A program made the position numbers and the translations under genes. 64,000 bases of DNA, taken from assembly GCA_016219865.1 (NCBI GenBank), contig JACRKF010000021.1, forward strand, positions 2,224-66,223, written 5' to 3'. The stretch comes from Candidatus Woesearchaeota archaeon (GTDB lineage Archaea > Nanobdellota > Nanobdellia > Woesearchaeales > DSVV01). Positions 8,491-43,769 of this stretch are shown one piece after another (positions within the stretch are counted from its first letter, which is position 1; every line of letters starts with the position of its first letter). The notes below the pieces were generated by a model, which was given only the letters and a program-made list of their open reading frames with translations, was not told the DNA's origin and did no database searches.

Positions 8491-9309
8491 ATGAATTTTA
8501 AAGCCATAAAATTCGACAAAGATATCATTATTGATAATTATATAAAAACAAAAAGTTTAAATATCAACTATTTATATTATAGACTTATGCAAGCAATAAC
8601 ATTCCTCAAAAACGTAGAACATCTTCACAAACCTGTTTTTTCATTGCAAGATGCAGCAAAAATGATTGAGAAAAAAAAAGGATATGCACGTCTTTATCTT
8701 TATCGTTTGAAAAGAAAAGAATATATCAAAGAAATTGAAAAAGGGAAGTATAGTATTTCAGATGACATCTATGAAATTGCCTCAAATGTTGTATTTCCTT
8801 CATATATCTCATTCTTGAGCGCATTTTCTCTATATGGTTTAACAACACAAATACCAAAGAGGATACAAATTATTGCAGCAAAACCAAAAAAAGAATTAAT
8901 AGTTGATGATTCAACTATTGAATTTATTACATTTAAGAATAAGAATATTTTTGGATATGAAAGAACAAAGATTGGAGTTCATTATGGCATGATTGCAGAA
9001 AAAGAAAAAGCAATAATTGATGCATTATACTTACCGCAACATTGCCCAATCAGTGAAACATTTGAAGTGCTTAAGAATAAAGAATTTGACATCGACAAAT
9101 TAGTTGATTATGCTCTGCAGATGGATTCAATAATATTATTAAAAAGACTTGGTTATCTTTTAGAATTAGTAGAATTTAACATTTTTGAAAAAGTAAAACA
9201 TAAGTTAAATCAACGTTATGATCTTTTGAATCCATTTCTCCCTGCTTCAAATAAAGAATGTATAAAATCTATGAAATGGAAACTAATTATAAATGAGGTG
9301 CTTGAATGA
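8491..9309 (+). CDS. AbiEi-like antitoxin / transcriptional regulator (type IV TA)
   Basis: wHTH-like N-terminus. 4-bp overlap with the AbiEii gene. Confidence 0.5.
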   Translation: MNFKAIKFDKDIIIDNYIKTKSLNINYLYYRLMQAITFLKNVEHLHKPVFSLQDAAKMIEKKKGYARLYLYRLKRKEYIKEIEKGKYSISDDIYEIASNVVFPSYISFLSAFSLYGLTTQIPKRIQIIAAKPKKELIVDDSTIEFITFKNKNIFGYERTKIGVHYGMIAEKEKAIIDALYLPQHCPISETFEVLKNKEFDIDKLVDYALQMDSIILLKRLGYLLELVEFNIFEKVKHKLNQRYDLLNPFLPASNKECIKSMKWKLIINEVLE

Positions 9310-10058
9310 TACTGCGAAATCAATTAGGAAAATATGCGCAGATGCTTAACTATGATCTTGGACAGACAGAAAAAGATTATCTGCAGCATTTGTTTTTATT
9401 TTTTCTATCACAACATGATACAACAAACCTTGTGTTCAAAGGCGGAACAGCATTGCAGAAAGTATATGGTTTGAATAGATTTAGCATTGACCTTGATTTT
9501 ACTGCTAAAGAAAATAACATTGACTTCAAGATGTTAATAGAGAAAATTGCAAAGAAAATAACAGATTTTGGTTATAACTGCAAAGTGCAAGAGATAAAGA
9601 CAATTGGAAAAACATTTGTGATAAAAATACAAGGCCCTCTTTATCAAAACAGTCAAGTAAGCACTTGCACATTGCGTATTGAAGTTAGCTTTCGTGAATC
9701 ACTTTTGCTTCAACCAATCCTAAAAGAGATCATTCCATCATACACTGATTTACAACCCTATACTATCCTTGTCATGCAAACAGAAGAGATATTAGCAGAA
9801 AAAGTGCGTGCAATTATGACACGAAACAAACCAAGAGATATATTTGATCTTCATTTCTTGCTGCTGAAAAACACAGCTTTCAATATTGAGTTTATCAACA
9901 AGAAACTAGATTATTATAAGGAAAAATACAATAAAAAAGCATTTTTACAAAAGATAAAAGAAAAAGAGAAAATATGGAATCATGAAATGAAGCAGTATAT
10001 TAGAAATCTACCTTCATTTGAATCTATTGAAAAAGAGATCATAAAAAGAGTCTCTTAG
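9306..10058 (+). CDS. AbiEii/AbiGii-family nucleotidyltransferase toxin
   Basis: The LVFKGGTALQKVYGLNRFSIDLDF motif is typical of DUF1814 (AbiEii). Confidence 0.8.
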   Translation: MILRNQLGKYAQMLNYDLGQTEKDYLQHLFLFFLSQHDTTNLVFKGGTALQKVYGLNRFSIDLDFTAKENNIDFKMLIEKIAKKITDFGYNCKVQEIKTIGKTFVIKIQGPLYQNSQVSTCTLRIEVSFRESLLLQPILKEIIPSYTDLQPYTILVMQTEEILAEKVRAIMTRNKPRDIFDLHFLLLKNTAFNIEFINKKLDYYKEKYNKKAFLQKIKEKEKIWNHEMKQYIRNLPSFESIEKEIIKRVS

Positions 10059-14926: not shown

Positions 14927-15775
14927 TCATTTCAAACCTAATTGTTCTTTAGTCTTTGCATTAAGAACATGCAACCCATCCAAATGTTGATCCATATTGA
15001 AATCATAAGGAAATGAGTTCTCTAATAGCTCTTCAACTAACAGTTTACTCTTACTGTTTAATTGACTTGATGTTATTTTTATTCTGTCTAAAGCAGCATC
15101 CATGGTTATTTCATGAGTAGATACATAATATAAAACAGCCCGTAACCCTGAATAAACATACCTAACCTCAGCGCCACTAGCGCGATTTCTGCGATGCACA
15201 CAAGTCTCTTTTAACACTTTTAAAATATCCAATGTCTGAGCAACTTCAACATATTCACAGGTACCCAAATCTTTAAGCATCTGTAATTCATAAAACTTTC
15301 TAAGGTAACTATCTACCCTCTCTTCATAATTTTTAAATTCCTTACCATCCGAATAATAATTATAGGGTTCTTTAATACGATCTGGAAATATCTCTGCCAA
15401 TCCTGGAGCAATTTTAAAAGCATCTTTTCGAATCTTTTCTCTATGACATTCTAATTTATCTGTAAGCTCCCTCATCTTGGAAGAATAACTTTCTTCTAAG
15501 ATAACTCTTCTTTCTTCAAGTTGATGTAATTTTAAAGCATAATCTTTCTCTAAGTCAGTTCTTCTTTTCTGTAAACTATCCATAACTGTTTGTTCATATG
15601 ACGCCAATTTAAGTTCTAATGAACCAACAAGTTCTCTTAATTTCTCTTCTGCAGCTCTTTTTGATTCATCTAAAGATTGTTGTAAAACAGCATCATTTAG
15701 AGTTCTTAAACTAGATTCCATTTCTTGTATAAAAGTAGTTAAAGAAGTTCTGCTGAGATCAAGCGATTTAATCAT
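14927..15775 (-). CDS. hypothetical coiled-coil protein
   Basis: 282 aa, largely helical/coiled-coil. Co-directional with, and 8 bp from, the upstream ORF. Confidence 0.4.
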   Translation of the reverse strand: MIKSLDLSRTSLTTFIQEMESSLRTLNDAVLQQSLDESKRAAEEKLRELVGSLELKLASYEQTVMDSLQKRRTDLEKDYALKLHQLEERRVILEESYSSKMRELTDKLECHREKIRKDAFKIAPGLAEIFPDRIKEPYNYYSDGKEFKNYEERVDSYLRKFYELQMLKDLGTCEYVEVAQTLDILKVLKETCVHRRNRASGAEVRYVYSGLRAVLYYVSTHEITMDAALDRIKITSSQLNSKSKLLVEELLENSFPYDFNMDQHLDGLHVLNAKTKEQLGLK

Positions 15776-15782
15776 TTCCTCT

Positions 15783-16346
15783 CTAATGTTTGAACACTAA
15801 TTGATAATATTTCTTTGAGAAATAAGCGTTTGCAATCATAGGTATGCCTGTTGCATTAGCAACTGCTATTACTAATTGTTTCTCATTTTCAACAGTATAT
15901 TGCTGCTCTAGAATCAATCTTTCCAATTGATCTACTACAATTCCAATATCTTTAGAACATATTGGTTTCTTTTTAGTAGGAAGTTTATATAAATGTGAAA
16001 GCTTTATTTCATTATCACAAAAAACTAATAAAGTACTTGTTTTCGCTGAGAATAATCCATTTTTTGTTGTACTATATTGGATACTAACATAACTAATTAA
16101 TGATTCTTTTGATAATTGTAAATCTAAGCTTATAAGTTTTTCATTTGCAACAGAATCAATTGCAGGTTCCTGAGGAGTTATATCAACTAAACGTAAACAT
16201 GCATTAAGATAGTCCTTAAAATTATCTAATTTGACGATTAAACCACTAATATCTGCAGGTAGAGTTAGAATCTGATCAATACCAATTGATTCTAACTTTC
16301 CAATATATGGAGCTGCAATAGCTTCCGGACTTGATTGCTTTGCCAT
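15783..16346 (-). CDS. hypothetical protein
   Basis: 187 aa with no recognisable motif. First gene of the co-directional block leading into archease-rtcB. Confidence 0.4.
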   Translation of the reverse strand: MAKQSSPEAIAAPYIGKLESIGIDQILTLPADISGLIVKLDNFKDYLNACLRLVDITPQEPAIDSVANEKLISLDLQLSKESLISYVSIQYSTTKNGLFSAKTSTLLVFCDNEIKLSHLYKLPTKKKPICSKDIGIVVDQLERLILEQQYTVENEKQLVIAVANATGIPMIANAYFSKKYYQLVFKH

Positions 16347-18188: not shown

Positions 18189-18455
18189 ATGGATAAGATT
18201 AACAATATAAAAGAATTAAAAGACAAAGCAAGACTTCTTAATCCAGCCGTAAGAATAGGAAAATCTGGGATTACTGAAAATCTTCTAAAAGAAATTCGAT
18301 TTCAACTAGAACAAAAAAAACTTATAAAGATAAAATTATTAAGCGCAGCATTATCACAGATGGAAAAAAAGAAAACAGCAGATTTAATAGCAGAAGAAAC
18401 AAATGCAAATATAGTGCAGATAATAGGCAATTGCGTAATTCTGGCTAAAAGATAA
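18189..18455 (+). CDS. YhbY/CRM-domain RNA-binding protein
   Basis: VRIGKSGITENLLKEI...IVQIIGNCVIL matches the CRS1/YhbY domain. Confidence 0.75.
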   Translation: MDKINNIKELKDKARLLNPAVRIGKSGITENLLKEIRFQLEQKKLIKIKLLSAALSQMEKKKTADLIAEETNANIVQIIGNCVILAKR

Positions 18456-18540: not shown

Positions 18541-18608
18541 AAATAAATACTAAAAATATATAAAGTAGAAATTCTTAGTAAAGTAAAAAAACTAAAAAAG
18601 GGGTAATT

Positions 18609-20108
18609 ATGAGTGAAGGAAGCTCTGATGGTTCAGAATTACTAAAAAGATTTGACTTCAAGGATAAAAAAGGGGAAGCTGATGAAGAAGATATAGAACT
18701 TGGCAGGGATAATGCTGGACAATATATTACAGGTAAGACTGGCTATCCAAAGCCTCTGAAAAGATATAGAATCATTTATCAAGTATTTAATCAATCAATA
18801 GAAGAAACATATTTCTGGCTTTTAGAACATCTTCGTCATGATCAAGGATTCCATGATATTATAAAGATTACAGACACATTTACTGCATCAGAACATTCTG
18901 CTTTTTTCGGAAGCGCTCAGCAAAGAATTGGTTTGCAGCAGGATAAAGTATCGCAATTTCTCGCAACTATTGGAAAAATGATTAAAGAATTATTTCAATT
19001 AGTGCGAGAATTAAGAATATTAGATGAAAGATTGCAATATTACAACGATAGTTATACAGAAAGCAAAAGCAGGGAAAGCGCAGAGATAACATTAAAAGGA
19101 ATCTGGATTGACTTAGTAGAACAAGGTTCAAAAAATCCTGCATCTGTTTATGGTATGGCAAGAGAATTGCAATTTACAACATTGCCTGATTTATTCTTTT
19201 CAATCCACCCGCGAGAACCGGAAGATGTTGATGAGATGATTAATGCTCTTGACTTTAATAAAAAAGTAAGAGAAGTTCTTAAAAGAAAATTACGAACATA
19301 TTTAGATTGGAAAAAAGCAACATTTAGTGAGTTAAAGAATAGAAGAATCTTCACAATAAAATATTTGCGGCAGCACTTTGAAATAATAAAAATGTACATC
19401 AGCTGGGTTAAACCATATCTCAGAAACATTCGTCGTCTGGAATTAAGTGATAAAACAAAATCTCCTGATTTAATTGCTGCATTCGAAGGTTCAATAATTG
19501 AAATAGAAATATTATGCCAAAAAATGCCAGTTGAACTAACTACAAATAGAATGGAGCGAAGAAATAAAAAGATAAAATCAGTCGTTCTCTTGACAATCAT
19601 GTACAGAAGCAAGCCGTCATTATCTTATCAACAAGAATATCAGCGAGGCCCAATTCATGTAGGATTAACTGATATTACATTGCGTACTTATGCTTGGGAA
19701 GATAAAGAAATACAGAATTACATCAAAATGAGAGAAAAAGAAGATTTAGAATTATTAAAATCTGTAGATTCTTCTGTAAAAACAGCAATGGAAGCATTAG
19801 GAGATGAATTAGAACGATACTTAAAAGAAGCAGGTGATGAAACTGCTTTTGAAAAGAAGAAAGATGAACATCATGAAAAGAAAAAAAAATCATTCATTGA
19901 AAGTTTTCTAGGAACATTTATTTCATTCAAATCCTCTTCATCTCATGGTAAAAAAGATAGTCATGGAAAAGGAGATAGTCGTAATGAAATAAAACTGCCA
20001 GAACCTATGTTAGATACAGAAAAAGATACTGCAAAACGAGCAGCTGGTGACGCAATCTGGCAAACTTACAAAAACTATAAGAAGAAGGAGAAATTACTCA
20101 ATTGGTAA
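18609..20108 (+). CDS. hypothetical protein (499 aa) with a K/E-rich low-complexity C-terminus
   Basis: Strong RBS (AAAGGGGT). No recognisable motif. Confidence 0.5.
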   Translation: MSEGSSDGSELLKRFDFKDKKGEADEEDIELGRDNAGQYITGKTGYPKPLKRYRIIYQVFNQSIEETYFWLLEHLRHDQGFHDIIKITDTFTASEHSAFFGSAQQRIGLQQDKVSQFLATIGKMIKELFQLVRELRILDERLQYYNDSYTESKSRESAEITLKGIWIDLVEQGSKNPASVYGMARELQFTTLPDLFFSIHPREPEDVDEMINALDFNKKVREVLKRKLRTYLDWKKATFSELKNRRIFTIKYLRQHFEIIKMYISWVKPYLRNIRRLELSDKTKSPDLIAAFEGSIIEIEILCQKMPVELTTNRMERRNKKIKSVVLLTIMYRSKPSLSYQQEYQRGPIHVGLTDITLRTYAWEDKEIQNYIKMREKEDLELLKSVDSSVKTAMEALGDELERYLKEAGDETAFEKKKDEHHEKKKKSFIESFLGTFISFKSSSSHGKKDSHGKGDSRNEIKLPEPMLDTEKDTAKRAAGDAIWQTYKNYKKKEKLLNW

Positions 20109-20122
20109 ACTGATGAAAACAA

Positions 20123-20689
20123 ATGACTGATGAAAAACAGAAACAAACAACATTAAGCAGAGAAGAATTATTAGCATTATCACCTGAGGAAAGAATAGCA
20201 AAATTAAAACAGTTTGAAGACGAGAGGAAGAAAAATCTTGATAAAGAAATCGCTGAGGCAAAAAAGGTTTTAGAAGACACAGAAAGAGAAATAAAACAAA
20301 AAAAAGATCAGCAATTAACTGATGAATTGATGCGAAGAAAAATTCTCGAGGAAAAAGCGCAACTGCAAAAGTCACTAGAAGAAACAGTTAGACAAGAATC
20401 TCCTCAGCGAAAAGAAGATCTTCCCCAACAAGCTGAATACAAAACAAATGTTAATTACATGGTTGATATGTACACTAATTTAAAAAACATTTTAGATACA
20501 GGATTACCGCTTAATCCATATGAACGAGCAAAAGTTGAAGACATTTACAATATTATGAACCAACTTGCCAATCAAAATCCTCATGAAAATGCAGACAGAC
20601 AGACAATTGATGACATTACACATGCAACAAAAAGAATAATTAAAACATTGCTTGGCGATTATCAGAGCAATGTGAAGTATAGTCCTTAA
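20123..20689 (+). CDS. hypothetical coiled-coil protein
   Basis: 188 aa, charged coiled-coil N-terminal half. Confidence 0.5.
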   Translation: MTDEKQKQTTLSREELLALSPEERIAKLKQFEDERKKNLDKEIAEAKKVLEDTEREIKQKKDQQLTDELMRRKILEEKAQLQKSLEETVRQESPQRKEDLPQQAEYKTNVNYMVDMYTNLKNILDTGLPLNPYERAKVEDIYNIMNQLANQNPHENADRQTIDDITHATKRIIKTLLGDYQSNVKYSP

Positions 20690-20716
20690 ACTTTTGTTTC
20701 ACAAAAATTTATAAAT

Positions 20717-21337
20717 ATGAATACGATAAAAAGAGTTATTATGAATGAAAAAAGGAAAGCAAGCAAAAAGAGAAATAAAAAAGCCCAAACATGGTCATTA
20801 GAAGTATTTATGGCAATGATGATTTTCCTTATTGCAACTGTTATGTTTTATGCTGTTATTTTTACAGCGCCAAAACACAAAGAATTAACAAAAGAAGCTG
20901 AATTAATAACTAAATCAATTGATACAAATGAATTATTTGAAGACGGGATGTTAACGCAAGAAGAAGCTGAAAAACTGTCAGGTAAAACATGCAATGAACT
21001 AAAACAAATGGTCAACACTAACAAGAAAATCTGTATTTATTTTAAAGATCAAAGCGGCAATATAGTTCCATTATCCGCAGAATATAATGTAATTGGCTGT
21101 GATGGCATTACAGTTGGAAGCATTGAATGCACAGCTCCAAAACAATCAAATGCATGCGATGACGGTGTTCAAAATGGAGACGAAGAAGGAATTGATTGCG
21201 GTGAAATCTGCGGCAATGAATGCGCGCAAGCGCCTGCAACACCTGAAGATACTCCTATCCCTTGTGAAGAGGATTACGAATGTCCTTCTGGCATGATATG
21301 CGATACTGTATCAACATGGATATGCGTAGCTGCATAA
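20717..21337 (+). CDS. putative archaeal type IV pilin-like (class III signal peptide) protein with a Cys-rich C-terminal domain
   Basis: A basic N-terminus followed by KKAQ-TWSLEVFMAMMIFLIATVMF resembles a prepilin/DUF361 signal. The C-terminus carries 12 Cys (CDDG..CGEICGNEC..CEEDYECPSGMIC). Confidence 0.5.
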   Translation: MNTIKRVIMNEKRKASKKRNKKAQTWSLEVFMAMMIFLIATVMFYAVIFTAPKHKELTKEAELITKSIDTNELFEDGMLTQEEAEKLSGKTCNELKQMVNTNKKICIYFKDQSGNIVPLSAEYNVIGCDGITVGSIECTAPKQSNACDDGVQNGDEEGIDCGEICGNECAQAPATPEDTPIPCEEDYECPSGMICDTVSTWICVAA

Positions 21338-21637
21338 ATTTTATGTGCAACTCTTCAATAGACTTAAATGGGAAAGACGGTTTTTTATATGCAGATTCAA
21401 ATCAATTTCTTCATCGTGCAACTGCTTTATTGTTGCGAAATCAATTCAATCAAAGAATGAAATACAAAAGCTATGCTTATGGAGATATTCTAGTTCCAGA
21501 AAAAGTAGATAATTGTGGTTTGCCAAGAAGACTATATATCAATCAACAGAGATTAATTGGATAAAAAAGAGAATGATAATAATAATAATATAAAAAAAGA
21601 ATAAATAAAAAATCCAAGAAAATTGCAATTGAATTTT

Positions 21638-22410: not shown

Positions 22411-22448
22411 AGTATTTGCGAACTCACTTCGTTCGTTCAGCAAATACT
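22411..22448. repeat. 38-nt hairpin repeat, family B (copy 2)
   Basis: agtatttgcgaactcacttcgttcgttcagcaaatact. It abuts the stop of the 22448..22774 gene. Confidence 0.7.
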
Positions 22449-22774
22449 TAAAATAACCTAATCGAAAACAAATACAAAAACGCAGCCCAAACCACTACAA
22501 TGATAACAACCTGCAATATCCAAGCAAGAAATGCGCGAAAATAACTTAAATCAAACATTATAGTATAGACAAATAAAAGAGCAAATAAAGATATAACCAA
22601 TGAATAGATGGGAGTAAAATAAATATTTATTGCAAATGTAAGAACAGCTACTATAATATTAACAATTACTACCCTTAATAATGTAGAATGTCCAGATAAC
22701 ATTTTCACAGCTAAATTTAAAGGAATTGCAGAAAGCGCAAATACTAATATTAACCAGAGCAATGTATCAATCAT
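22448..22774 (-). CDS. hypothetical small membrane protein
   Basis: 108 aa, 3-4 transmembrane helices. Confidence 0.5.
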   Translation of the reverse strand: MIDTLLWLILVFALSAIPLNLAVKMLSGHSTLLRVVIVNIIVAVLTFAINIYFTPIYSLVISLFALLFVYTIMFDLSYFRAFLAWILQVVIIVVVWAAFLYLFSIRLF

Positions 22775-22807
22775 AAATAAACAAATTATTGTTATAATAT
22801 AAATAAT

Positions 22808-23320
22808 TTATTGATTTTTTTTCTTAAAGTGAGAGATAATATCTTGCGTAAGTGATTGATGACTATAAATTAAATTATAGAATTGAGTTGCGCCTGCATT
22901 GATTGCTGCATCTTTTGCAACAAGATGCTGCCCAGAAAAACTATAAAATAAATTTGTATTATAAGAAGTTGCAAATATTGTTGTATCTTTATTTACTGAA
23001 TAAGGTTTTCTTAATTCTTCAATGAAATATTTCCCCATTTTCCAATTTTCTTTAGAATCAGATATTTCTCCAAGAATCTCATCAATTACAGGATTATTAT
23101 TATATTCTCCTGGTAAGACTGACATATTTAAAACAATTAAATTTACTTTCTCAACAAGAAGTGTGTCAAGAACAGGATAAACTGCTTCATGAAATGTTGG
23201 TCTAATTTTATGCTTTGCAAGATCTGCAACAATCTCATCTAGATTAGCATGGTCATAATCTAACCACGGAAAGAAAATAAGTCTTCGTAATTGTGGTGGA
23301 AATTTCAATACTTTTCCCAT
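22808..23320 (-). CDS. hypothetical protein
   Basis: 170 aa. Downstream of the PAC2-family gene on the same strand. Confidence 0.45.
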   Translation of the reverse strand: MGKVLKFPPQLRRLIFFPWLDYDHANLDEIVADLAKHKIRPTFHEAVYPVLDTLLVEKVNLIVLNMSVLPGEYNNNPVIDEILGEISDSKENWKMGKYFIEELRKPYSVNKDTTIFATSYNTNLFYSFSGQHLVAKDAAINAGATQFYNLIYSHQSLTQDIISHFKKKNQ

Positions 23321-25577: not shown

Positions 25578-27515
25578 CTAGCGTATCCTGCTTTTAGCAG
25601 CCTGAAACACATGCTCAGGGAGAACACTTTGAACTGAGATGATACCATAATGCAGACCAATTGCTTCTGCTGGCGCTTCTTGCTTTGTATAACTAAATCC
25701 ATTGCCATTAGAACTCAAAGGAAATAAAGAAACTTGTACTGATGAATTTACCCCTAAGTCTCTAAGATTAGGAAAATGTGTTGGAAGAATTGCGCGAACA
25801 CCTTTATTGAGAAAAGTGTTTTCTGCAATTGCATATAAGATTGCTGCGCCGTCATCTGCTCTTGTTGCAGTTCCCTATTCATCTAATACCACAAGACAAT
25901 ACGATTCACAACCTGTAATCTGCTCATACAGCTCTTTGATTGCTTGTTTTTCAGCAGCAAAACTGCTTTTAATATTTGTTCCTACTTGCCTATGCCTTAC
26001 AAATATTCTTTCATGGATTGAGATTGTAGCAGAACTTGCTGGGACATATAATCCAGCCTGCGCAAAATTCACAAGTATTGCAGCCATATCAGCATAGATT
26101 GACTTTCCTGCTTCATTTGGACCTTCAACTATCTCAACAAGAGTATCGTGATTAAGATAGACGCTATTTGGCATTGGTTTGGAAACATGAAGGAAAGGAT
26201 TTAGGCCATTTTCAATATTGATTATCCTTTCTTCTTTTGGAACAATTGTAGACCTTACCCTTTTTTTTTCTTTAAAAAATTTTGCTAATCCTGCATACAA
26301 AGCAATCTCTTTTTCAATTTTTTTAAAAGAAGTTGTAATATATCTAAATTTCTCGAGGGAATTACGTTCCCCAAATAGATGATATAACTCTTTAGCATCT
26401 TTTGGATCTGCTGCTATAATCTCTTGCAACTTCTTTTTTAATGAAGAAATTCCTTTCTCTTCATTCTTCATTATATGATCCACAGCTCTCTGTATACGAC
26501 CAAGTTGCGGAACATCAGCATCAGTAAGATCTGGAAATGAGATGCTTTCCAGATTTTGAACAACATTTTTTACATTTTTCATAAATTGTTCATAACAAAA
26601 TTGAGCAACATCTTTAGCTTCTTCTGGATCAAAGAGATAGGTTCCACCATCTCTTGATTGGATATTACCCATCCTATGACCATGTTTAGAATGTTTATTC
26701 ATAAATCCTATCCCTGCTTTTCCTTTATAGCACTGAAATAGATCCATGACAGACCAAAGAAGAGCTTTCATAGTAGAATCGAGAGAGATGCAATCATTTT
26801 TTGTCAAAGATTTTAAAAGATCGTCATTAACCATAAAATAATTGATTGCGTCAGTTCGTTGAGCAATAAGATTTCTGTCAGTCAATGGATTAAGCACCCA
26901 ATCAGCAAGTTGAGGTTTGTCTAGATCATATCCTGAAAATAATGCATTAAGCAATCGTGGAGTTGGTTTTTCCATAGTAAAGAAATAACCAAATGTCTTT
27001 TCTGTATCACCACCATAAAGCGCATTATAACTTTCATGATCAAGAACTGCACTATGTAAAAAACTAAGCGAATCATCTTTAGGTAAACTCCCTTTTACTA
27101 ATTGAGGATGCTTTGTATATGATAGATCAATCTCATCAACAAGAACAACAATATTGCCATATTTAACAGAATCCATATTAATTTTAGGCGCAATCACTAT
27201 ATCTGCAGATTCAAGACGAGCTTTGTATCTTTTTGGATCAAGAGAAAACTTTTCAAGAGGAATACTGGACATCCTCATTTTTGTTTGAACAAGAGCCTTG
27301 TAAAGAGAAAGTGCTTCCTTTATATGAACAGGGATATGATCATCACGACGTGAATCATACTTTCCATAATTAAGAGAATCGAGATCATGTTTCCCATTAA
27401 CTTTTGAAGCAATAGTCCCTACAAAAACTGCGCTTAGATTATGATGCAATTCACTCCTTAACTCAAGAATTTTAGCTCCAGTTTCTAATGTTTGTATTTC
27501 CTCTTCAAGCGTCAT
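25578..27515 (-). pseudogene. MutS-family ATPase (domain V) interrupted by an in-frame TAG at 25875-25877; read-through would give about 645 aa
   Basis: Walker A GPNEAGKS. The sequence reads ...SYCLVVLDE-[TAG]-GTATRADDGAAILYAIAE...THF, which matches MutS LLDE-I-GRGTSTyDG...TH. No MutS domain I (GDFYELF) is present. Confidence 0.7.
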
Positions 27516-29262: not shown

Positions 29263-30960
29263 TTACTCTTTCCTCTTAAACTTCTTCTCAAGTTCATACA
29301 ATGAATAATGTATTATTGCTGGACGTCCATGCGGGCAAGTGAATTTATTTTCGCATTGAAACAATTCTTCCAGAATTCTATAGATCTCTGGAAATTCTAA
29401 TACATCATGCGCTTTTACTGCGCTTCTGCAAGCTGCTCGTGCTATTCTCTCCTCCTTAATTTCCTCAATTTTCACCGTTTCGCCAAGATTTAATTCATCA
29501 ATAACATCATAGATTAATTGTTTCTGTTGTGTTCTTCCAAAAACAGAAGGTAATGAGCGAAGCAGATAACTATCATTACCAAATAACTCAAGATTAAACC
29601 CAGTGCTTTGCAGCAATTCAATATTCTGCTCTATAATAACGCGTTCATTTGGTGTTACATGCAACACAATTGGTGTTAATAATTGCTGCGCATGTATATG
29701 CTTATCTTTGCATTCTTGCAAGAATTTCTCATACATAACTCTTTCATGCGCTGCATGCTGATCAATCAGAAGCATTCCTTTTTCATCTTCTGCAATGATA
29801 AATGTATTATGTATCTTTCCAATTAATCGTATATTCAACACTTGTTTTAAAGGTAATAAAGACGGCGCTTGCGTGAATGCAGTTTGATATTCAATAAACT
29901 GCCCTGCTGAGGACAATATAAGTTTTGCATCAATCTCTTTTGGTCTTGATTCAATCACTTCCGGAATCAAATTTTCTTCAACTAAGCAATCGATAACTGC
30001 TTTCTTTATTGCTTCATAGATTAAATATTCTTTATCAACTCTGACAATTGATTTTGAAGGATGCACATTAACATCAACTTTCTGCGGCAGAATAGTTATA
30101 TTTAAAATAAAGATCGGATGCCTTCCATGAAACAAGAAAGTGCCATAACCATCATAAACAGCTTTGTTAAGAACATAATTTTTAATATACCTTTTATTAA
30201 TGTACAAGCTTTGATATTCTTTATCTGTCCTTGCTGCATTTGGCTTGCCGATATAACCATTAATCTCAACATCGCCATTTGCAAAGTTAACAGCCAGAAA
30301 CTCTTTTGTTAAATCTCTGCCATATATTGTTATAATATTATTCAGCAGATCTGTTGTAGACGGTGAATTAATAATTGTCTTCCCATTATGCGTCAACAGA
30401 AAATGCATCTCTGGATGGATTAATGCATAACGAGTAATGATATCAATAATATGATTAAATTCCACTGCAATTCCTTTCAGATGTTTTTTTCGCGCAGGAA
30501 CATTGTAAAAAAGATCAGAAACAGCAATCATTGTGCCTTGTTTTGCGCTGACATATTCCTGCTTTAAAACAATGCCATTTTCAACTGTTATTGAAACACC
30601 AACATCATTTTCTTTTGTTTTTGTTATCATTTCAAGCTTAGCAATTGAAGCAATACTTGCTAATGCTTCTCCTCGAAATCCAAGAGTTGTAATCTGAAAC
30701 AAATCCTGAAGATTATTTAATTTTGATGTAGTATGGCGCTGTATACTCATCACAACATCATCTTTCTCAATACCTGATCCATTGTCACTCACTTTAACAA
30801 GAGATTTCCCGCCTTCAATAACTTCAATGGAAATATGTGTTGCTTCTGCATCAATTGCATTCTCAACCAATTCTTTTACAACAGAAGCAGGTCTTTCAAT
30901 AACTTCTCCAGCTGCAATCTTATTTATTAAATCTTTATCAAGTTCTTTTATTTTACTCAT
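29263..30960 (-). CDS. mutL: DNA mismatch repair protein MutL (with endonuclease motif)
   Basis: GHKL motifs ELVENAIDA, DNGSGI and GFRGEAL are present. The C-terminal DQHAAHERVMYEKF is the DQHAxxExxxxE nicking motif. Confidence 0.9.
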   Translation of the reverse strand: MSKIKELDKDLINKIAAGEVIERPASVVKELVENAIDAEATHISIEVIEGGKSLVKVSDNGSGIEKDDVVMSIQRHTTSKLNNLQDLFQITTLGFRGEALASIASIAKLEMITKTKENDVGVSITVENGIVLKQEYVSAKQGTMIAVSDLFYNVPARKKHLKGIAVEFNHIIDIITRYALIHPEMHFLLTHNGKTIINSPSTTDLLNNIITIYGRDLTKEFLAVNFANGDVEINGYIGKPNAARTDKEYQSLYINKRYIKNYVLNKAVYDGYGTFLFHGRHPIFILNITILPQKVDVNVHPSKSIVRVDKEYLIYEAIKKAVIDCLVEENLIPEVIESRPKEIDAKLILSSAGQFIEYQTAFTQAPSLLPLKQVLNIRLIGKIHNTFIIAEDEKGMLLIDQHAAHERVMYEKFLQECKDKHIHAQQLLTPIVLHVTPNERVIIEQNIELLQSTGFNLELFGNDSYLLRSLPSVFGRTQQKQLIYDVIDELNLGETVKIEEIKEERIARAACRSAVKAHDVLEFPEIYRILEELFQCENKFTCPHGRPAIIHYSLYELEKKFKRKE

Positions 30961-30990: not shown

Positions 30991-32379
30991 TTAATTGTGA
31001 TTTAATACCTGATTCAGATTATGGTTGCCTTTATCACTAATACCATATCTTTCTCTAACAATTCTTTCTTCTCTATCAGTTAAGCGAGATAATAGTTGTT
31101 TTAATCTAAAACTATCATCTTTTACAAGAGCAGAATCATCAGCTGAAACTGATGCTGTATTCTCAAGCACATCATAATAAGTCATTTCTTTTCCTGTACC
31201 AACGGCATCATCAAGTGAAGTAAGTGTTAATCGTTTTTTGTATTCATCATATGTTTTTTCATCAAGATACTTCCTTTTGCCTGTTATTTCCATCTCATAC
31301 TCTAAATCTTCAAAAGTTCTATGCTTTCTTTCTATCTCTCTATAAGTTGCTGCAAATTTCTCTTGCGCATGCACAGGAGTGCGTATAGTCTTATTCTGAT
31401 CTATAATTGCGCGAGTTACTGCTTGCTTTATCCACCATGTTGCATATGTTGAAAATTTATATCCTCTCTGCCCATCAAATTTTTCTACTGATTTCATTAA
31501 TCCAGTATTTCCTTCTTGAATTAAATCAGAAAGAGTCATATTGTCCAATAAATGAGTGTATTTCTTCGCAATTGAAACAACAAGACGAAGATTTGCATTA
31601 ACAAATTTATTGCGAAGTGAGAAATATTCTCTAAGATCTCTGCCTATGGAAATAAGATCCTCCTTGTAAGCATTATGTATTCTAAATGCTCTTGCATTCC
31701 CAGCTAAAGAATCACCTAATTTATTTTCATAAAACTCCATATAATGACAAGCTGCTGCCTTAAACAAAGAATATGAATTAAAATAAAATGAAGGATCAAC
31801 ACCAAAATCAATGATCTCTTTAAGAAATTCTTTTCCATACTCTACTTTTCTAGCAACAGATGGAATTATTCTGCCATATTTCAACCTTTTTTCACCCAAT
31901 ACCGGGATAATTTCTAAATAAAAGCTTTCAACTGCTTTACGCATTTGATCATATACATTACCATCTTTTTCTACCTCGCCTTTATCAGTTACTTGTTCTT
32001 CATCTTCATTACTTTCTTGAATATAACCCTGTTGTTCAGCATCGCCATTATCAACTTTCTGTTTAGAAATTGCATAAGCAACTCTTTTCTCTAAACGAAA
32101 AACTTTTAACAATGGTTGAAGAACATATTCTGGATTTATACCATAAACTTTTCCGATAAAAGAACTTCTCACTTCACGAAGTCTTTGGGAAAGATTAATT
32201 TCTTCATCTCTTGTTAGTAATTTAATTGCGCCCATACTTTTCATATAAGTAGAACAAGAATCTGAATCAATAAGTTCAGAACCATTAGGCCGAGAATCAC
32301 CTGGAATATAAATACCCTCTGCATAATCATCTAATCCTAATGCATGAATTCTATTCTCCAACCCCACAATCTCTTCCAT
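30991..32379 (-). CDS. bacterial-type sigma-70 family protein (regions 1.2, 2, 3, 4.1), apparently lacking the region 4.2 recognition helix
   Basis: Region 2 [11 protein letters not shown]...[41 protein letters not shown] is nearly identical to the RpoD consensus. Region 1.2 ([16 protein letters not shown]) and region 4.1 ([15 protein letters not shown]) are present. The ORF ends right after NLNQV. Confidence 0.8.
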
Positions 32380-42530: not shown

Positions 42531-43769
42531 ATGAACGAAGTGAATACGAAAATACTTAAGATCAACAAAACACCCTGGCATTCATGGTGCACTGGAAAGA
42601 TTTCAAAAGGCTGCGCATATTGTGTGCAAGGAAGAAAGTTAGTGTTATTTATCACAGGATTATGCCCGCAAAGATGTTTTTATTGCCCTGTAGGAGAACA
42701 AAAGTTTGGCAATGATGTTGTATATGCTAATGAATGGAAATTAGAAGATCCGAACAATCCTGTTGAATTAATAAAAGAAGCAGAACTAACGCAAGCAAAA
42801 GGCGCTGGAATTACTGGCGGAGATCCATTGATGAATATTAAGAGATGCTGCAATTATATCCAATTATTAAAAAAAAAGTTTGGAAAAGAATTTCATATTC
42901 ATTTATACACGCCATTGAAATTAGTAACAAAAGAAAGATTACAAAAACTATCTGCTGCTGGACTTGATGAGATAAGGTTTCACCCTGATTTAGATGATAA
43001 TTCTTTATGGAACAGGATTAAAATTGCAAAAAAGTACAGATGGGAAATTGGTATAGAGATTCCAGCAATTCCCGGATATGAAAAAAAAACAATGAGACTG
43101 ATTGATTACATTATTTTTGCAGACTCCCTATTGCCCGAATTGCCTAATGAGGAGAATTTTGCATTTTTGCAAAATTCTCCAAACAAAGTATCATTCATCA
43201 ATCTTAATGAACTTGAACTTTCAGATACTGAAACAAAACATTATACATTGCCAACAAAAGGGTTTAAGGCAAAAGATAATATTAGTTATGGTGTAAAAGG
43301 AAGCAAAGAGATGGCAATAAAAATGCTGGAATATGCTAAAGAAAAAGGATTATCTGCGCATTTTTGCACTGCAAGACTAAAAGATGGTATACAAGTCAAG
43401 AAAAGATTACAAATTAGAGCAGAAAACATTAAATTACTATTTGATGAAAAAACAGAAGATGGAACATTACTGCGCTGCTGCATATACCTCCCAGAACTTG
43501 CGCCAGGAATGAATTATAGAGAAAAACTAAGAAACGCTGATAAAAATGATTTTATTGAAAAACTAACAGTTATTCGCAATAAATTATTAGAAACTTTAAC
43601 ATTAAGTGAAAAAGAAATAGTTATTGATTCAAACAAATGCAGATTAATCATTCCAAGAAGTGTTGCAAAACAATATGCAAATAAAATAAAGAAATATAAT
43701 TTACTTCCAGCATTAGTTGAAGAATATCCTACTCAAGATGGATTTGAGGTTGAGATTGAATTTTTGTAA
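42531..43769 (+). CDS. radical SAM domain protein
   Basis: The CPQRCFYC (Cx3Cx2C) motif is preceded by a CAYC motif. The gene contains an in-frame copy of the family A repeat at 43120-43180. Confidence 0.7.
   Translation: MNEVNTKILKINKTPWHSWCTGKISKGCAYCVQGRKLVLFITGLCPQRCFYCPVGEQKFGNDVVYANEWKLEDPNNPVELIKEAELTQAKGAGITGGDPLMNIKRCCNYIQLLKKKFGKEFHIHLYTPLKLVTKERLQKLSAAGLDEIRFHPDLDDNSLWNRIKIAKKYRWEIGIEIPAIPGYEKKTMRLIDYIIFADSLLPELPNEENFAFLQNSPNKVSFINLNELELSDTETKHYTLPTKGFKAKDNISYGVKGSKEMAIKMLEYAKEKGLSAHFCTARLKDGIQVKKRLQIRAENIKLLFDEKTEDGTLLRCCIYLPELAPGMNYREKLRNADKNDFIEKLTVIRNKLLETLTLSEKEIVIDSNKCRLIIPRSVAKQYANKIKKYNLLPALVEEYPTQDGFEVEIEFL
43120..43180. repeat. palindromic repeat, family A, copy inside a coding sequence (ggagaattttgca-tttt-tgcaaaattctcc, plus the conserved left flank cagactccctattgcccgaattgcctaatga)
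   Basis: It is read in frame as ...DSLLPELPNEENFAFLQNSPNK... within the radical SAM protein. Confidence 0.7.

Follow-up and report, generated by a model that had tools for sequence, protein, structure and literature searches.

Attachment to a host is the presumed way of life of DPANN archaea, but few of the molecules behind this contact have been identified. Three neighboring genes in the genome of a Woesearchaeota (DPANN) archaeon, named here A, B, and C, raise the question of whether they encode one surface-filament or adhesion system, as suggested by an earlier note on this DNA, or whether units of different origin have come to lie next to each other. The genes were analyzed within the window, i.e., the whole 64-kb stretch of DNA. 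The reading favored here, which we consider fairly probable, is that two unrelated units make up the locus. A and B would belong to a cytoplasmic module, and C would be a pilin-like protein, processed in the manner of EppA substrates and displayed on a pilus.

Gene models and transcription signals

The description of three co-directional genes with short gaps, from which the single-system proposal started, is exact. Gene A (18609-20108, 499 aa), gene B (20123-20689, 188 aa), and ORF C (20717-21337, 206 aa) all lie on the forward strand, with 14 nt between A and B and 27 nt between B and C. They are real genes rather than chance ORFs, because homologues exist for each of them: more than 1,900 for A and 14 for C, while B is found beside A in 64 of 85 loci. 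The genes and the signals around them are as follows:

18552-18565, + strand: TATA-like putative promoter element of gene A (AAAAATATATAAAG), also present in the relatives L005 and L004
18600-18604, + strand: RBS GGGGT of gene A, 3' of the TATA-like element
18609-20108, + strand: gene A, predicted soluble basic protein (pI 8.8) of 499 aa, from homologues and an AF2 model
20123-20689, + strand: gene B, 188-aa acidic, charged partner of A, from context and sequence
20703-20716, + strand: TATA-like element AAAAATTTATAAAT between B and C, with its 3' end 24 nt 5' of the ATG at 20741
20741-21337, + strand: gene C, candidate type IV pilin-like protein of a Woesearchaeal Epd/EppA-like pilus family, from family, contexts, and motif
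21381-21386, + strand: T6 run 3' of C, possibly an archaeal oligo-T terminator

Going by what is generally known of archaeal promoters, the TATA-like element in front of A may act as its promoter. The element in front of C, AAAAAT[AT]TATAAA, is kept in L005 and L004 at an unchanged distance from the start codon (24-25 nt 5' of it in three relatives), and this conservation suggests a C transcript that is independent of A-B and probably leaderless. The second ATG of C (M9, nt 20741, giving 198 aa) is the likely start codon, in preference to the first ATG at 20717, which directly adjoins the TATA-like element conserved in relatives; the NCBI annotation of C also starts at M9 (198 aa). No RNA genes were found in the 64-kb window.

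Pilin-like features of protein C

Three parts can be distinguished in protein C:

20741-20866, + strand: class III-like signal (leader MNEKRKASKKRNKKA, QTWSLE, and a hydrophobic helix to residue 50), from conservation
20867-21136, + strand: family-wide core domain, residues 51-140, from the alignment
21152-21334, + strand: clade-specific acidic tail, 61 aa with 8 Cys, from alignment and composition

The earlier note regarded C as pilin-like because of its N-terminus, and the quoted stretch KKAQTWSLEVFMAMMIFLIATVMF is indeed present. This reading is now supported by a motif shared by 14 of 15 family members, by a site of the EppA type, [KR][GA]|Q, and by pilin-operon contexts in six of six cases. 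The shared motif, [KR][KR][AG]QTWS[LIV][ED] followed by a hydrophobic helix, includes a Gln at +1 (Q24 in C) that is invariant across the family. In C, the boundary between leader and mature protein reads MNEKRKASKKRNKKA|QTWSLEVFMAMMIFLIATVMFYAVIF, with a short, positively charged leader and an H-domain, and the protein has one hydrophobic segment (residues 30-48). Cleavage is predicted before Q24 (nt 20786). The earlier note had placed the cut after the Gln (KKAQ|), and analogy with known sites shifts it by one residue, to the position after Ala23 (KKA|Q). The EppA peptidase of Methanococcus maripaludis requires Gln at +1, and its substrate sites RAQI and KGQx show that the [KR][GA]|Q type is attested (PMC4371748). 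It is proposed that C would carry a short basic leader, insert into the membrane via its hydrophobic N-terminal helix, and probably be cut after Ala23 (KKA|QTWSLE); the prepilin peptidase would be of the EppA type and encoded at another place in the genome. C could then become part of an Epd-like type IV pilus or be displayed on it.

The same N-terminus might instead belong to an unprocessed type II signal-anchored membrane protein, whose basic N-terminus would stay inside, whose TM helix would remain uncleaved, and whose Cys-rich ectodomain would face outward. The leader, which is strongly basic, and the presence of just one hydrophobic helix would suit this arrangement, and the motif departs from canonical class III cores. 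Trp occupies +3, and the acidic residue is found in all members at +6 (Q1 T2 W3 S4 L5 E6) and not at +5, where EppA substrates and bacterial pilins typically have Glu or Asp. Searches with pilin and class III signal models (Pfam at E<=0.1, NCBIfam at E<=1, including Class_IIIsignal) did not match C, and no peptidase is encoded in the window. However, a simple anchor would not need to keep [GA]-Q-T-W-S invariant at the edge of the membrane among proteins that are 26-43% identical. The leader is also very short (3-5 residues) in most members, and the family heads pilin operons, once beside an EppA-like peptidase. We therefore judge the uncleaved anchor unlikely and continue with the pilin-like reading. 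More generally, no domain match for C was obtained in Pfam, NCBIfam, or PHROGs, and a single weak PADLOC match to PD-T4-6 (E 4e-4) was set aside as probably compositional. The AF2 model of C, built from a 5-sequence alignment (pLDDT 56, pTM 0.29), is too poor for fold comparison.

Most members of the C family have 121-141 aa and end right after the last Cys of the core, in which C106 and C138 are invariant in all 15 proteins and a subset of these also shares C92 and C128. An acidic tail follows, within the family, only in the window protein and in P0122, P0123, and P0124. It consists of three parts, CDDGVQNGDEEGIDCGEICGNEC, a Pro/Thr linker, and CEEDYECPSGMICDTVSTWIC, and contains 15 D/E, no K/R (pI 4.05), and eight Cys, from C147 to C203. 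No relative of the tail was found in the PDB, and a search of ~1 Mb of related DNA for its motif turned up no other protein. A “12-Cys C-terminal domain” had been described for C. The C-terminus is Cys-rich and acidic, as stated, but the 12 Cys are those of the whole protein, four in the core (C92, C106, C128, and C138) and eight in the tail. It is proposed that C gained this acidic 8-Cys module and that the module is exposed on the filament or the cell surface; because of such a gained, surface-exposed module, C is plausibly a “modular” minor pilin or adhesin.

Pilin operons headed by the C family

Outside the window clade, a C-family gene stands at the head of a pilin operon in all six informative contexts (L085, L087, L088, L089, L091, and L093). 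Each of these operons opens with the C-type gene, a C paralogue, a KRG|YFF pilin, and a K[KR][GA]|FFF pilin. In the three with a sufficiently long contig (L085, L087, and L088), genes for a wHTH protein, a coiled-coil protein, T2SSE, and two T2SSF follow. The L085 operon adjoins a gene for a 378-aa EppA-like peptidase with Arc_PepC, both Asp motifs, and ~9-10 hydrophobic segments. EppA itself is a large 9-TM peptidase, tied to systems that have a single ATPase and a pair of PilC-like genes (PMC4371748; PMC4858521). A radical SAM gene of the window (42531-43769) was considered as an orthologue of the radical SAM gene of the pilin operons and proved not to be orthologous.

In the lineage of the window, one copy of the pilin gene that leads such operons lies downstream of A-B, with a putative promoter of its own. 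The earlier note had advised looking for a prepilin peptidase; none is encoded in the 64-kb window, which also lacks T2SSE and T2SSF, and the same three were absent within 10 kb of C in L090. As the window and the neighborhood of the L090 C contain no pilus machinery, the processing and assembly of C are putative in this genome.

Protein A

The second unit begins with A, in which two regions deserve separate description:

18873-19016, + strand: most conserved stretch of A, residues 89-136, from invariant columns
19839-20105, + strand: C-terminal part of A, a Lys-rich linker and a terminal helix, from alignment and model

A is among the best-conserved function-unassigned proteins of its clade, and it has no Pfam family, PDB relative, or Foldseek match. 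None of its homologues carries a Pfam domain; they form 660 clusters at 50% identity and are spread over at least 395 species genomes, with 51–92% identity. The alignment of 53 sequences contains 75 invariant columns. The family is specific to Woesearchaeota/Nanobdellota, and a 2026 Nanobdellota preprint mentions uncharacterised conserved markers without identifying the A family. Homologues of A were absent from the viral contigs searched, no informative domain fusions occur among the longer homologues, and a recurring weak match to DUF5751 led nowhere. The remark that the 499-aa protein has no recognizable domain thus stands (no match in Pfam, NCBIfam, PHROG, or PADLOC). Modeling followed by a Foldseek search, suggested in the same place, gave an AF2 model with pLDDT 77.8 and no match, and the A profile found no PDB sequence even at E<=10. 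In the model, an N-terminal alpha/beta domain is accompanied by two very long helices, a long sheet of three strands, and a flexible tail rich in Lys. Neither a signal peptide nor a TM segment was found in A or in B, and both are predicted to be soluble proteins.

The most conserved stretch comprises an invariant low-pLDDT loop, ASExSxFFG (pLDDT <50 at residues 93-101), and then RLGLQQDKVSQFLATIGKMVKELFQLVRELR, which contains a weak DivIVA-like motif. This motif allows another view of the module, in which A would be a DivIVA-like membrane-binding or curvature-sensing scaffold, B its coiled-coil partner, and their role one in division or polarity together with FtsZ. Weak PF05103 matches fall in one region of A in 21 of 53 family members, although these 53 tests are mutually non-independent. 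Hhalign pairs residues 105-136 of A with residues 16-47 of DivIVA, including G-x-x-x-D-x-V-x-x-F-L-A-x-[IV] (P 0.004), but its probability is 8% over 32 columns, and this match is the best picked from ~25,000 Pfam models. The invariant, exposed FFG loop preceding the motif, the long helices, the very high conservation of A, and the presence of an FtsZ gene in the window would all be consistent with such a role. However, DivIVA, GpsB, and Wag31 in the PDB are not matched by the A profile at E<=10. In addition, the motif is internal, at residues 105-136 of 499, after the alpha/beta domain and inside a helix in the model. A DivIVA domain was not assigned to A, the best member reaching E 0.0092 and the window protein 12.7 bits against a cut-off of 28, with the hhalign value given above. 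The DivIVA-like role is accordingly regarded as improbable.

In the C-terminal part of A, the disordered Lys-rich linker (residues 411-464) contains a short motif with the family consensus DPFxSxxKGFGE, and the conserved terminal helix ends in an invariant Trp. With a hydrophobic moment of 0.2-0.45, this helix is not strongly amphipathic. Membrane targeting through it was considered and dropped, both the hydrophobic moment and the hydrophobicity being low.

Protein B and the partner T

Where B is detected beside A, it lies downstream, on the same strand, and often overlaps the stop codon of A. Its N-terminus carries the conserved motif LSPEERIKxLK. B had no match in Pfam, NCBIfam, PHROG, PADLOC, or the PDB; it is probably a coiled coil, a reading drawn from composition and alignment. 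When B was compared with the coiled-coil and wHTH proteins of the pilus operons, no relationship was found.

A third component, T, is a xylose-isomerase-like TIM-barrel protein of ~720 aa and a conserved partner of A-B in most relatives; the 64-kb window contains no T homologue. Gene orders in 83 loci were ABT (21), ATB (20), AT (17), AB (16), A only (7), TAB (1), and ATTB (1). The T protein of L080 scores 54.3 bits against PF01261, above the gathering cut-off of 31.1 (E 2e-14). A relationship of T to endonuclease IV was not demonstrable (hhalign against E. coli Nfo, 1.4%).

It is proposed that A and B are the tightly coupled lead genes of a cytoplasmic module across Woesearchaeota/Nanobdellota, in which B would serve as an acidic, probably coiled-coil adaptor. 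Our best guess, of low confidence, is that A-B may form a structural or scaffolding complex working with the T enzyme, and not a surface filament. A broader and more tentative proposal is that A-B-T constitutes an undescribed clade-wide Woesearchaeota/Nanobdellota machine, with a fold that has no solved relative and conservation at least equal to that of phylum core markers. It might serve as a scaffold for the cytoskeleton or the membrane and might be functionally coupled to the Epd-like pilus, parts of which have twice been captured beside the A module. With its two defined partners, B and T, A is a well-delimited target for structural and interaction work.

One system or two

If A, B, and C formed a single surface-filament or adhesion system, then A and B would be expected to act as cytoplasmic assembly or anchoring parts for C. 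The co-directional arrangement with short gaps is compatible with this, and three relatives show the same A-B-C order. C adjoins A-B only in the window, in L004/L090, and in L005, however, and C is missing beside A-B in 80 of 83 non-redundant loci. The synteny of the trio, which the earlier note had named as a check, holds in the two closest relatives (A identity 72-92%) and nowhere else among the loci. The separation is also seen from the side of the pilins: no homologue of A or B lies near the six C-family pilin operons, and the MAG that carries the L085 operon has its A-B genes on another contig (L013). The conserved promoter element in front of C is a further argument against a common unit.

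The A module is also associated with pilus genes in a second, independent clade (L037, L039, L041, L066, and L076), in which T2SSE and two T2SSF genes, orthologous to the pilus ATPase and the two platform genes, directly follow A-T. The independent juxtapositions seen number two, which chance could yield in small genomes. Nevertheless, the occurrence of pilus parts beside the A module in two lineages leaves room for some functional link between them. Taken as one system, the three genes make a quite improbable unit, and the earlier proposal is not upheld, given that A and B have no TM segment or signal, that 80 of 83 loci lack C, and that C has a promoter element of its own. Adjacency made the single system an attractive inference, which is corrected here as probably wrong.

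The composite of two unrelated units, preferred here, separates two subjects for further work. A Woesearchaeal pilin family, marked by the QTWS[LI]E motif, is now defined together with its Epd/EppA-like operon. The extra copy of C in one lineage, with its own promoter element and its acidic Cys-rich module, is a testable candidate for a filament-displayed adhesin.

Comparison with known systems

The module of A, B, and T can be compared with known proteins at two points. As in the lipid-binding domain of DivIVA, GpsB, and Wag31 (PF05103; PDB 2WUJ, 6LFA, and 6GQA), a short motif in A precedes a long helix, a similarity that is statistically non-significant. In those proteins the domain is N-terminal, whereas in A the motif is internal to a 499-aa protein with extra alpha/beta domains. 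The T profile matches MJ1311 (PDB 3WQO; E 6e-10) and the D-tagatose 3-epimerases, which are ketose 3-epimerases (E 1e-3). Unlike these proteins, T has ~720 aa and a large insertion that splits the barrel.

The closest likeness of C is to the Epd pilins of M. maripaludis (EpdA-E), with which it shares a short basic leader, a [KR][GA]|Q site, and a hydrophobic N-terminal helix. The C-family operons, with several pilins, one T2SSE, and two T2SSF/TadC-like genes, resemble the “clade 1” archaeal type IV pili (EppA, EpdL, and EpdJ/K), and the large multi-TM A24 peptidase adjoining the L085 operon recalls the EppA system. The differences from the Epd pilins are also clear. C has no detectable similarity to DUF361/Class_IIIsignal, its QTWS[LI]E motif has the acidic residue at +6, and conserved Cys are present in its core domain. 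The window C, moreover, lies apart from the operon and has an additional acidic tail of 61 aa with 8 Cys, and its host is a DPANN archaeon, whereas Epd/EppA are known from a methanogen.

Modular type IV pilins, such as PilB and PilC of Streptococcus sanguinis, combine a pilin core with a grafted C-terminal functional module. Although the module of C is small, acidic, and Cys-rich, with no recognizable domain, and so differs from those of PilB and PilC, the overall plan of C appears to be analogous: a pilin-like N-terminus, a core, and an added C-terminal module that is possibly displayed on the filament and may be adhesive.

Gene arrangement in the window

The three genes lie on one strand exactly where the earlier note placed them, and with the sizes it gave:

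18609-20108 (+): gene A, 499 aa
20123-20689 (+): gene B, 188 aa
20717-21337 (+): gene C, 206 aa

Spacers are 14 nt (A-B) and 27 nt (B-C). The window is AT-rich (GC ~31%), its genes are archaeal in kind (L15e, aIF2-alpha-like, RtcB and archease, ELP3, CDP-archaeol synthase, FtsZ), and the nearest database proteins carry the label Candidatus Woesearchaeota. A and B have no match among the curated families of Pfam, NCBIfam, PHROGs and PADLOC. For C the first three libraries likewise gave nothing, and its single weak PADLOC match (PD-T4-6, E 4e-4) is probably compositional. Other features of the window are:

8491-10058 (+): AbiEi/AbiEii type IV toxin-antitoxin pair
14927-16346 (-): adjacent genes of 282 aa (charged, helical-looking) and 187 aa, no Pfam match, adjoining the archease/RtcB genes
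22448-23320 (-): two small genes, no Pfam match, between L15e and a PAC2-family gene, encoding a 108-aa hydrophobic, probable membrane protein and a 170-aa protein
25875-27515 (-): MutS-like gene, matching MutS domains III and part of V only
29263-30960 (-): MutL
30991-32379 (-): 462-aa protein whose Sigma70_r2 and Sigma70_r1_2 domains are bacterial, though the genome is archaeal, adjoining MutL and the MutS-like gene

A and B belong to a conserved module

A and B belong to a conserved module distinct from C. The homologues of A number more than 1,900, are 52-92% identical across nearly the full length and all lack a Pfam domain; an exhaustive profile search resolved the family into 660 clusters at 50% identity. 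Among species-representative genomes, 395 encode a relative; all of the 80 loci examined carry the label Woesearchaeota, Nanoarchaeota or Nanobdellota or come from TPA bins that are evidently mislabelled. A is absent from viral contigs. An alignment of 53 diverse members has 75 invariant columns; by comparison, a 2026 preprint puts the median pairwise identity of the phylum's core markers at 47.4%, on a different sequence set from that of A. The usual partner of A-B is T, a protein of ~720 aa with a split xylose-isomerase-like TIM barrel (PF01261); among solved structures, MJ1311 and ketose 3-epimerases are closest to it. The window holds no T homologue.

Gene order at 83 non-redundant A loci
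A-B-T: 21 loci
A-T-B: 20 loci
A-T: 17 loci
A-B: 16 loci
A only: 7 loci, mostly truncated contigs
T-A-B: 1 locus
A-T-T-B: 1 locus

B, seen in 64/85 loci, frequently overlaps the stop codon of A and is weakly conserved outside an N-terminal LSPEERIKxLK motif. No transmembrane segments or signal peptides were found in A or B. At the locus of P0049 (JGI 3300072015), A and B are separated by a gene for a 581-aa Ser/Thr protein kinase (Pkinase), and just upstream the same contig has a called gene of 18,490 residues. Several genes recur upstream of A: one for a CRS1/YhbY RNA-binding protein at 29 loci, one for a Na+/H+ exchanger-TrkA_N protein at 45 loci and, also often, those for NAD(P)HX dehydratase and a short NFACT-R protein (examples at L003:1794-4334, L004:2488-4561 and window 18189-18455).

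The TIM barrel of T (e.g., L001:8040-10133) is interrupted by an insertion of ~300 aa. By eye, the conserved T motifs LDTGH and VHLxDN...DDHLAPGQGN are similar to the motifs that supply metal ligands in endonuclease IV, and MJ1311 formerly figured as a predicted EndoIV homologue; a comparison with E. coli Nfo by hhalign gave no support for such a relationship.

The AF2 model of A (pLDDT 77.8, pTM 0.65) begins with an alpha-beta-beta-beta-alpha-beta domain and a low-confidence invariant loop, ASExSxFFG, followed by two helices (47 and 61 residues), a sheet of three long strands and further helices, and ends with a disordered Lys-rich linker bearing a short conserved motif and a terminal helix whose end is an invariant Trp. 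The sole recurring weak Pfam match was DivIVA, in one shared region of 21 of the 53 members, where RLGLQQDKVSQFLATI is similar by eye to FRGYDEDEVNEFLAQV. When profiles were compared, authentic DivIVA, Wag31 and GpsB sequences gave a probability of only 8%, so this likeness is kept as a lead and not as membership. Our working guess is that A-B may be a scaffold in the cytoplasm that cooperates with the T enzyme. Of the findings here, protein A together with B and T holds the most promise of novelty, being a very well conserved, structurally unmatched and clade-specific family.

C and the pilin operons of its relatives

The first search returned 5 relatives of C, and a profile search with a paralogue included raised this to 15, mostly of 121-141 aa and ending just past the last conserved Cys. 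The proposal that C is pilin-like is supported: in 14 of 15 members a short basic leader precedes [AG]-Q-T-W-S-[LIV]-[ED] and a hydrophobic helix. The N-terminus described in the earlier note is class III-like, with a small correction to its predicted cleavage position. The acidic residue stands at +6 instead of +5, the Pfam class III signal model does not match C, and the AlphaFold model (pLDDT 56) is unusable.

The strongest evidence is genomic context. In L085, a locus of a relative, the 121-aa C homologue P0125 is divergent from an adjoining 378-aa Arc_PepC peptidase with both catalytic-Asp motifs and about 9-10 hydrophobic segments. Following P0125 are its paralogue, two canonical class III proteins (HKKG/YFF..., GKRA/FFF...; the slash marks the site), a wHTH protein, a coiled-coil protein, the ATPase T2SSE, two T2SSF platform genes and then an archaellum cluster. 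This pilin-gene order recurs in L087, L088, L089, L091 and L093 (the contig reaching T2SSE and T2SSF in L087 and L088), so that the C family heads a pilin operon in 6/6 informative contexts outside the window's clade. Neither the peptidase, ATPase and platform proteins of this system nor any other of its pilins is encoded in the 64 kb of the window.

A radical SAM/Fer4_12 gene lies amid the pilin genes of two operons (L087:9864-11201, L088:1286-2575), and at L085:3527-8707 three radical SAM genes, an unannotated 463-aa gene and an HxsD-family gene adjoin the EppA-like peptidase; this hints that Cys-containing pilins may be post-translationally modified. Canonical class III N-termini also occur in other proteins of Woesearchaeota (KKG/QAALEFLVTYGW, KKA/MSPLLATVLIIAG, KKG/VSPLIATVLL), which points to several pilin classes in these genomes:

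L063:950-1900 (+): class III-type protein
L090:1780-2253 (+): class III-type protein
L024:110-559: class III-type protein
L079:1115-1555: class III-type protein

Relation of the module to the pilus

The earlier note read A, B and C as one surface-filament system, which we consider improbable. C follows A-B solely in the window and its closest relatives (L004/L090, L005). There is a second, independent juxtaposition: in L037, L039, L041, L066 and L076, orthologues of the T2SSE gene and both T2SSF genes of the C-type operon stand directly after A-T on the same strand (e.g., L037:9992-13336). These five loci are a single clade (A proteins mutually 81-86% identical), and B was not detected near these genes. 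Elsewhere, pilin-like genes near A are sporadic, and in the MAG carrying L085 the module and the pilin operon occupy separate contigs. As a functional link, the two juxtapositions are suggestive at most.

Transcription and tail of C

A is preceded by a TATA-like element of its own and by a ribosome-binding site, GGGGT. Within the B-C spacer is AAAAAT[AT]TATAAA, conserved across the window, L005 and L004 and ending 24-25 nt upstream of the ATG used in L005/L004, which is M9 (nt 20741) in the window. The open reading frame begins at 20717; the spacer element and the relatives' ATG favour M9 as the start. Judged by archaeal promoters in general, the spacing would suit a separate, near-leaderless transcript for C and a product of 198 aa, the length in the NCBI annotation.

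The supposed 12-Cys C-terminal domain is indeed a Cys-rich acidic tail, but only 8 Cys are in its 61 residues (15 acidic, 0 basic), the other 4 being in the central domain. The tail is limited to four family members of the window's clade and has no relative in the PDB; it is a lineage-specific addition on a pilin-like core.

Comparison with known pilins

Taken together, the sequence and context data support C as a putative EppA/Epd-type pilin that stands apart from the operon, has a putative promoter of its own and bears a Cys-rich tail specific to its clade. In Methanococcus maripaludis, the documented site type of EppA-processed pilins is [KR][GA]/Q (EpdA, RAQI; EpdB-E, KGQx), the +1 Gln is needed for processing and EppA is far larger than FlaK (PMC4371748); a 9-TM EppA is tied to 'clade 1' T4P systems (PMC4858521). 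The C family shares this site type with the EppA-processed Epd pilins of M. maripaludis.
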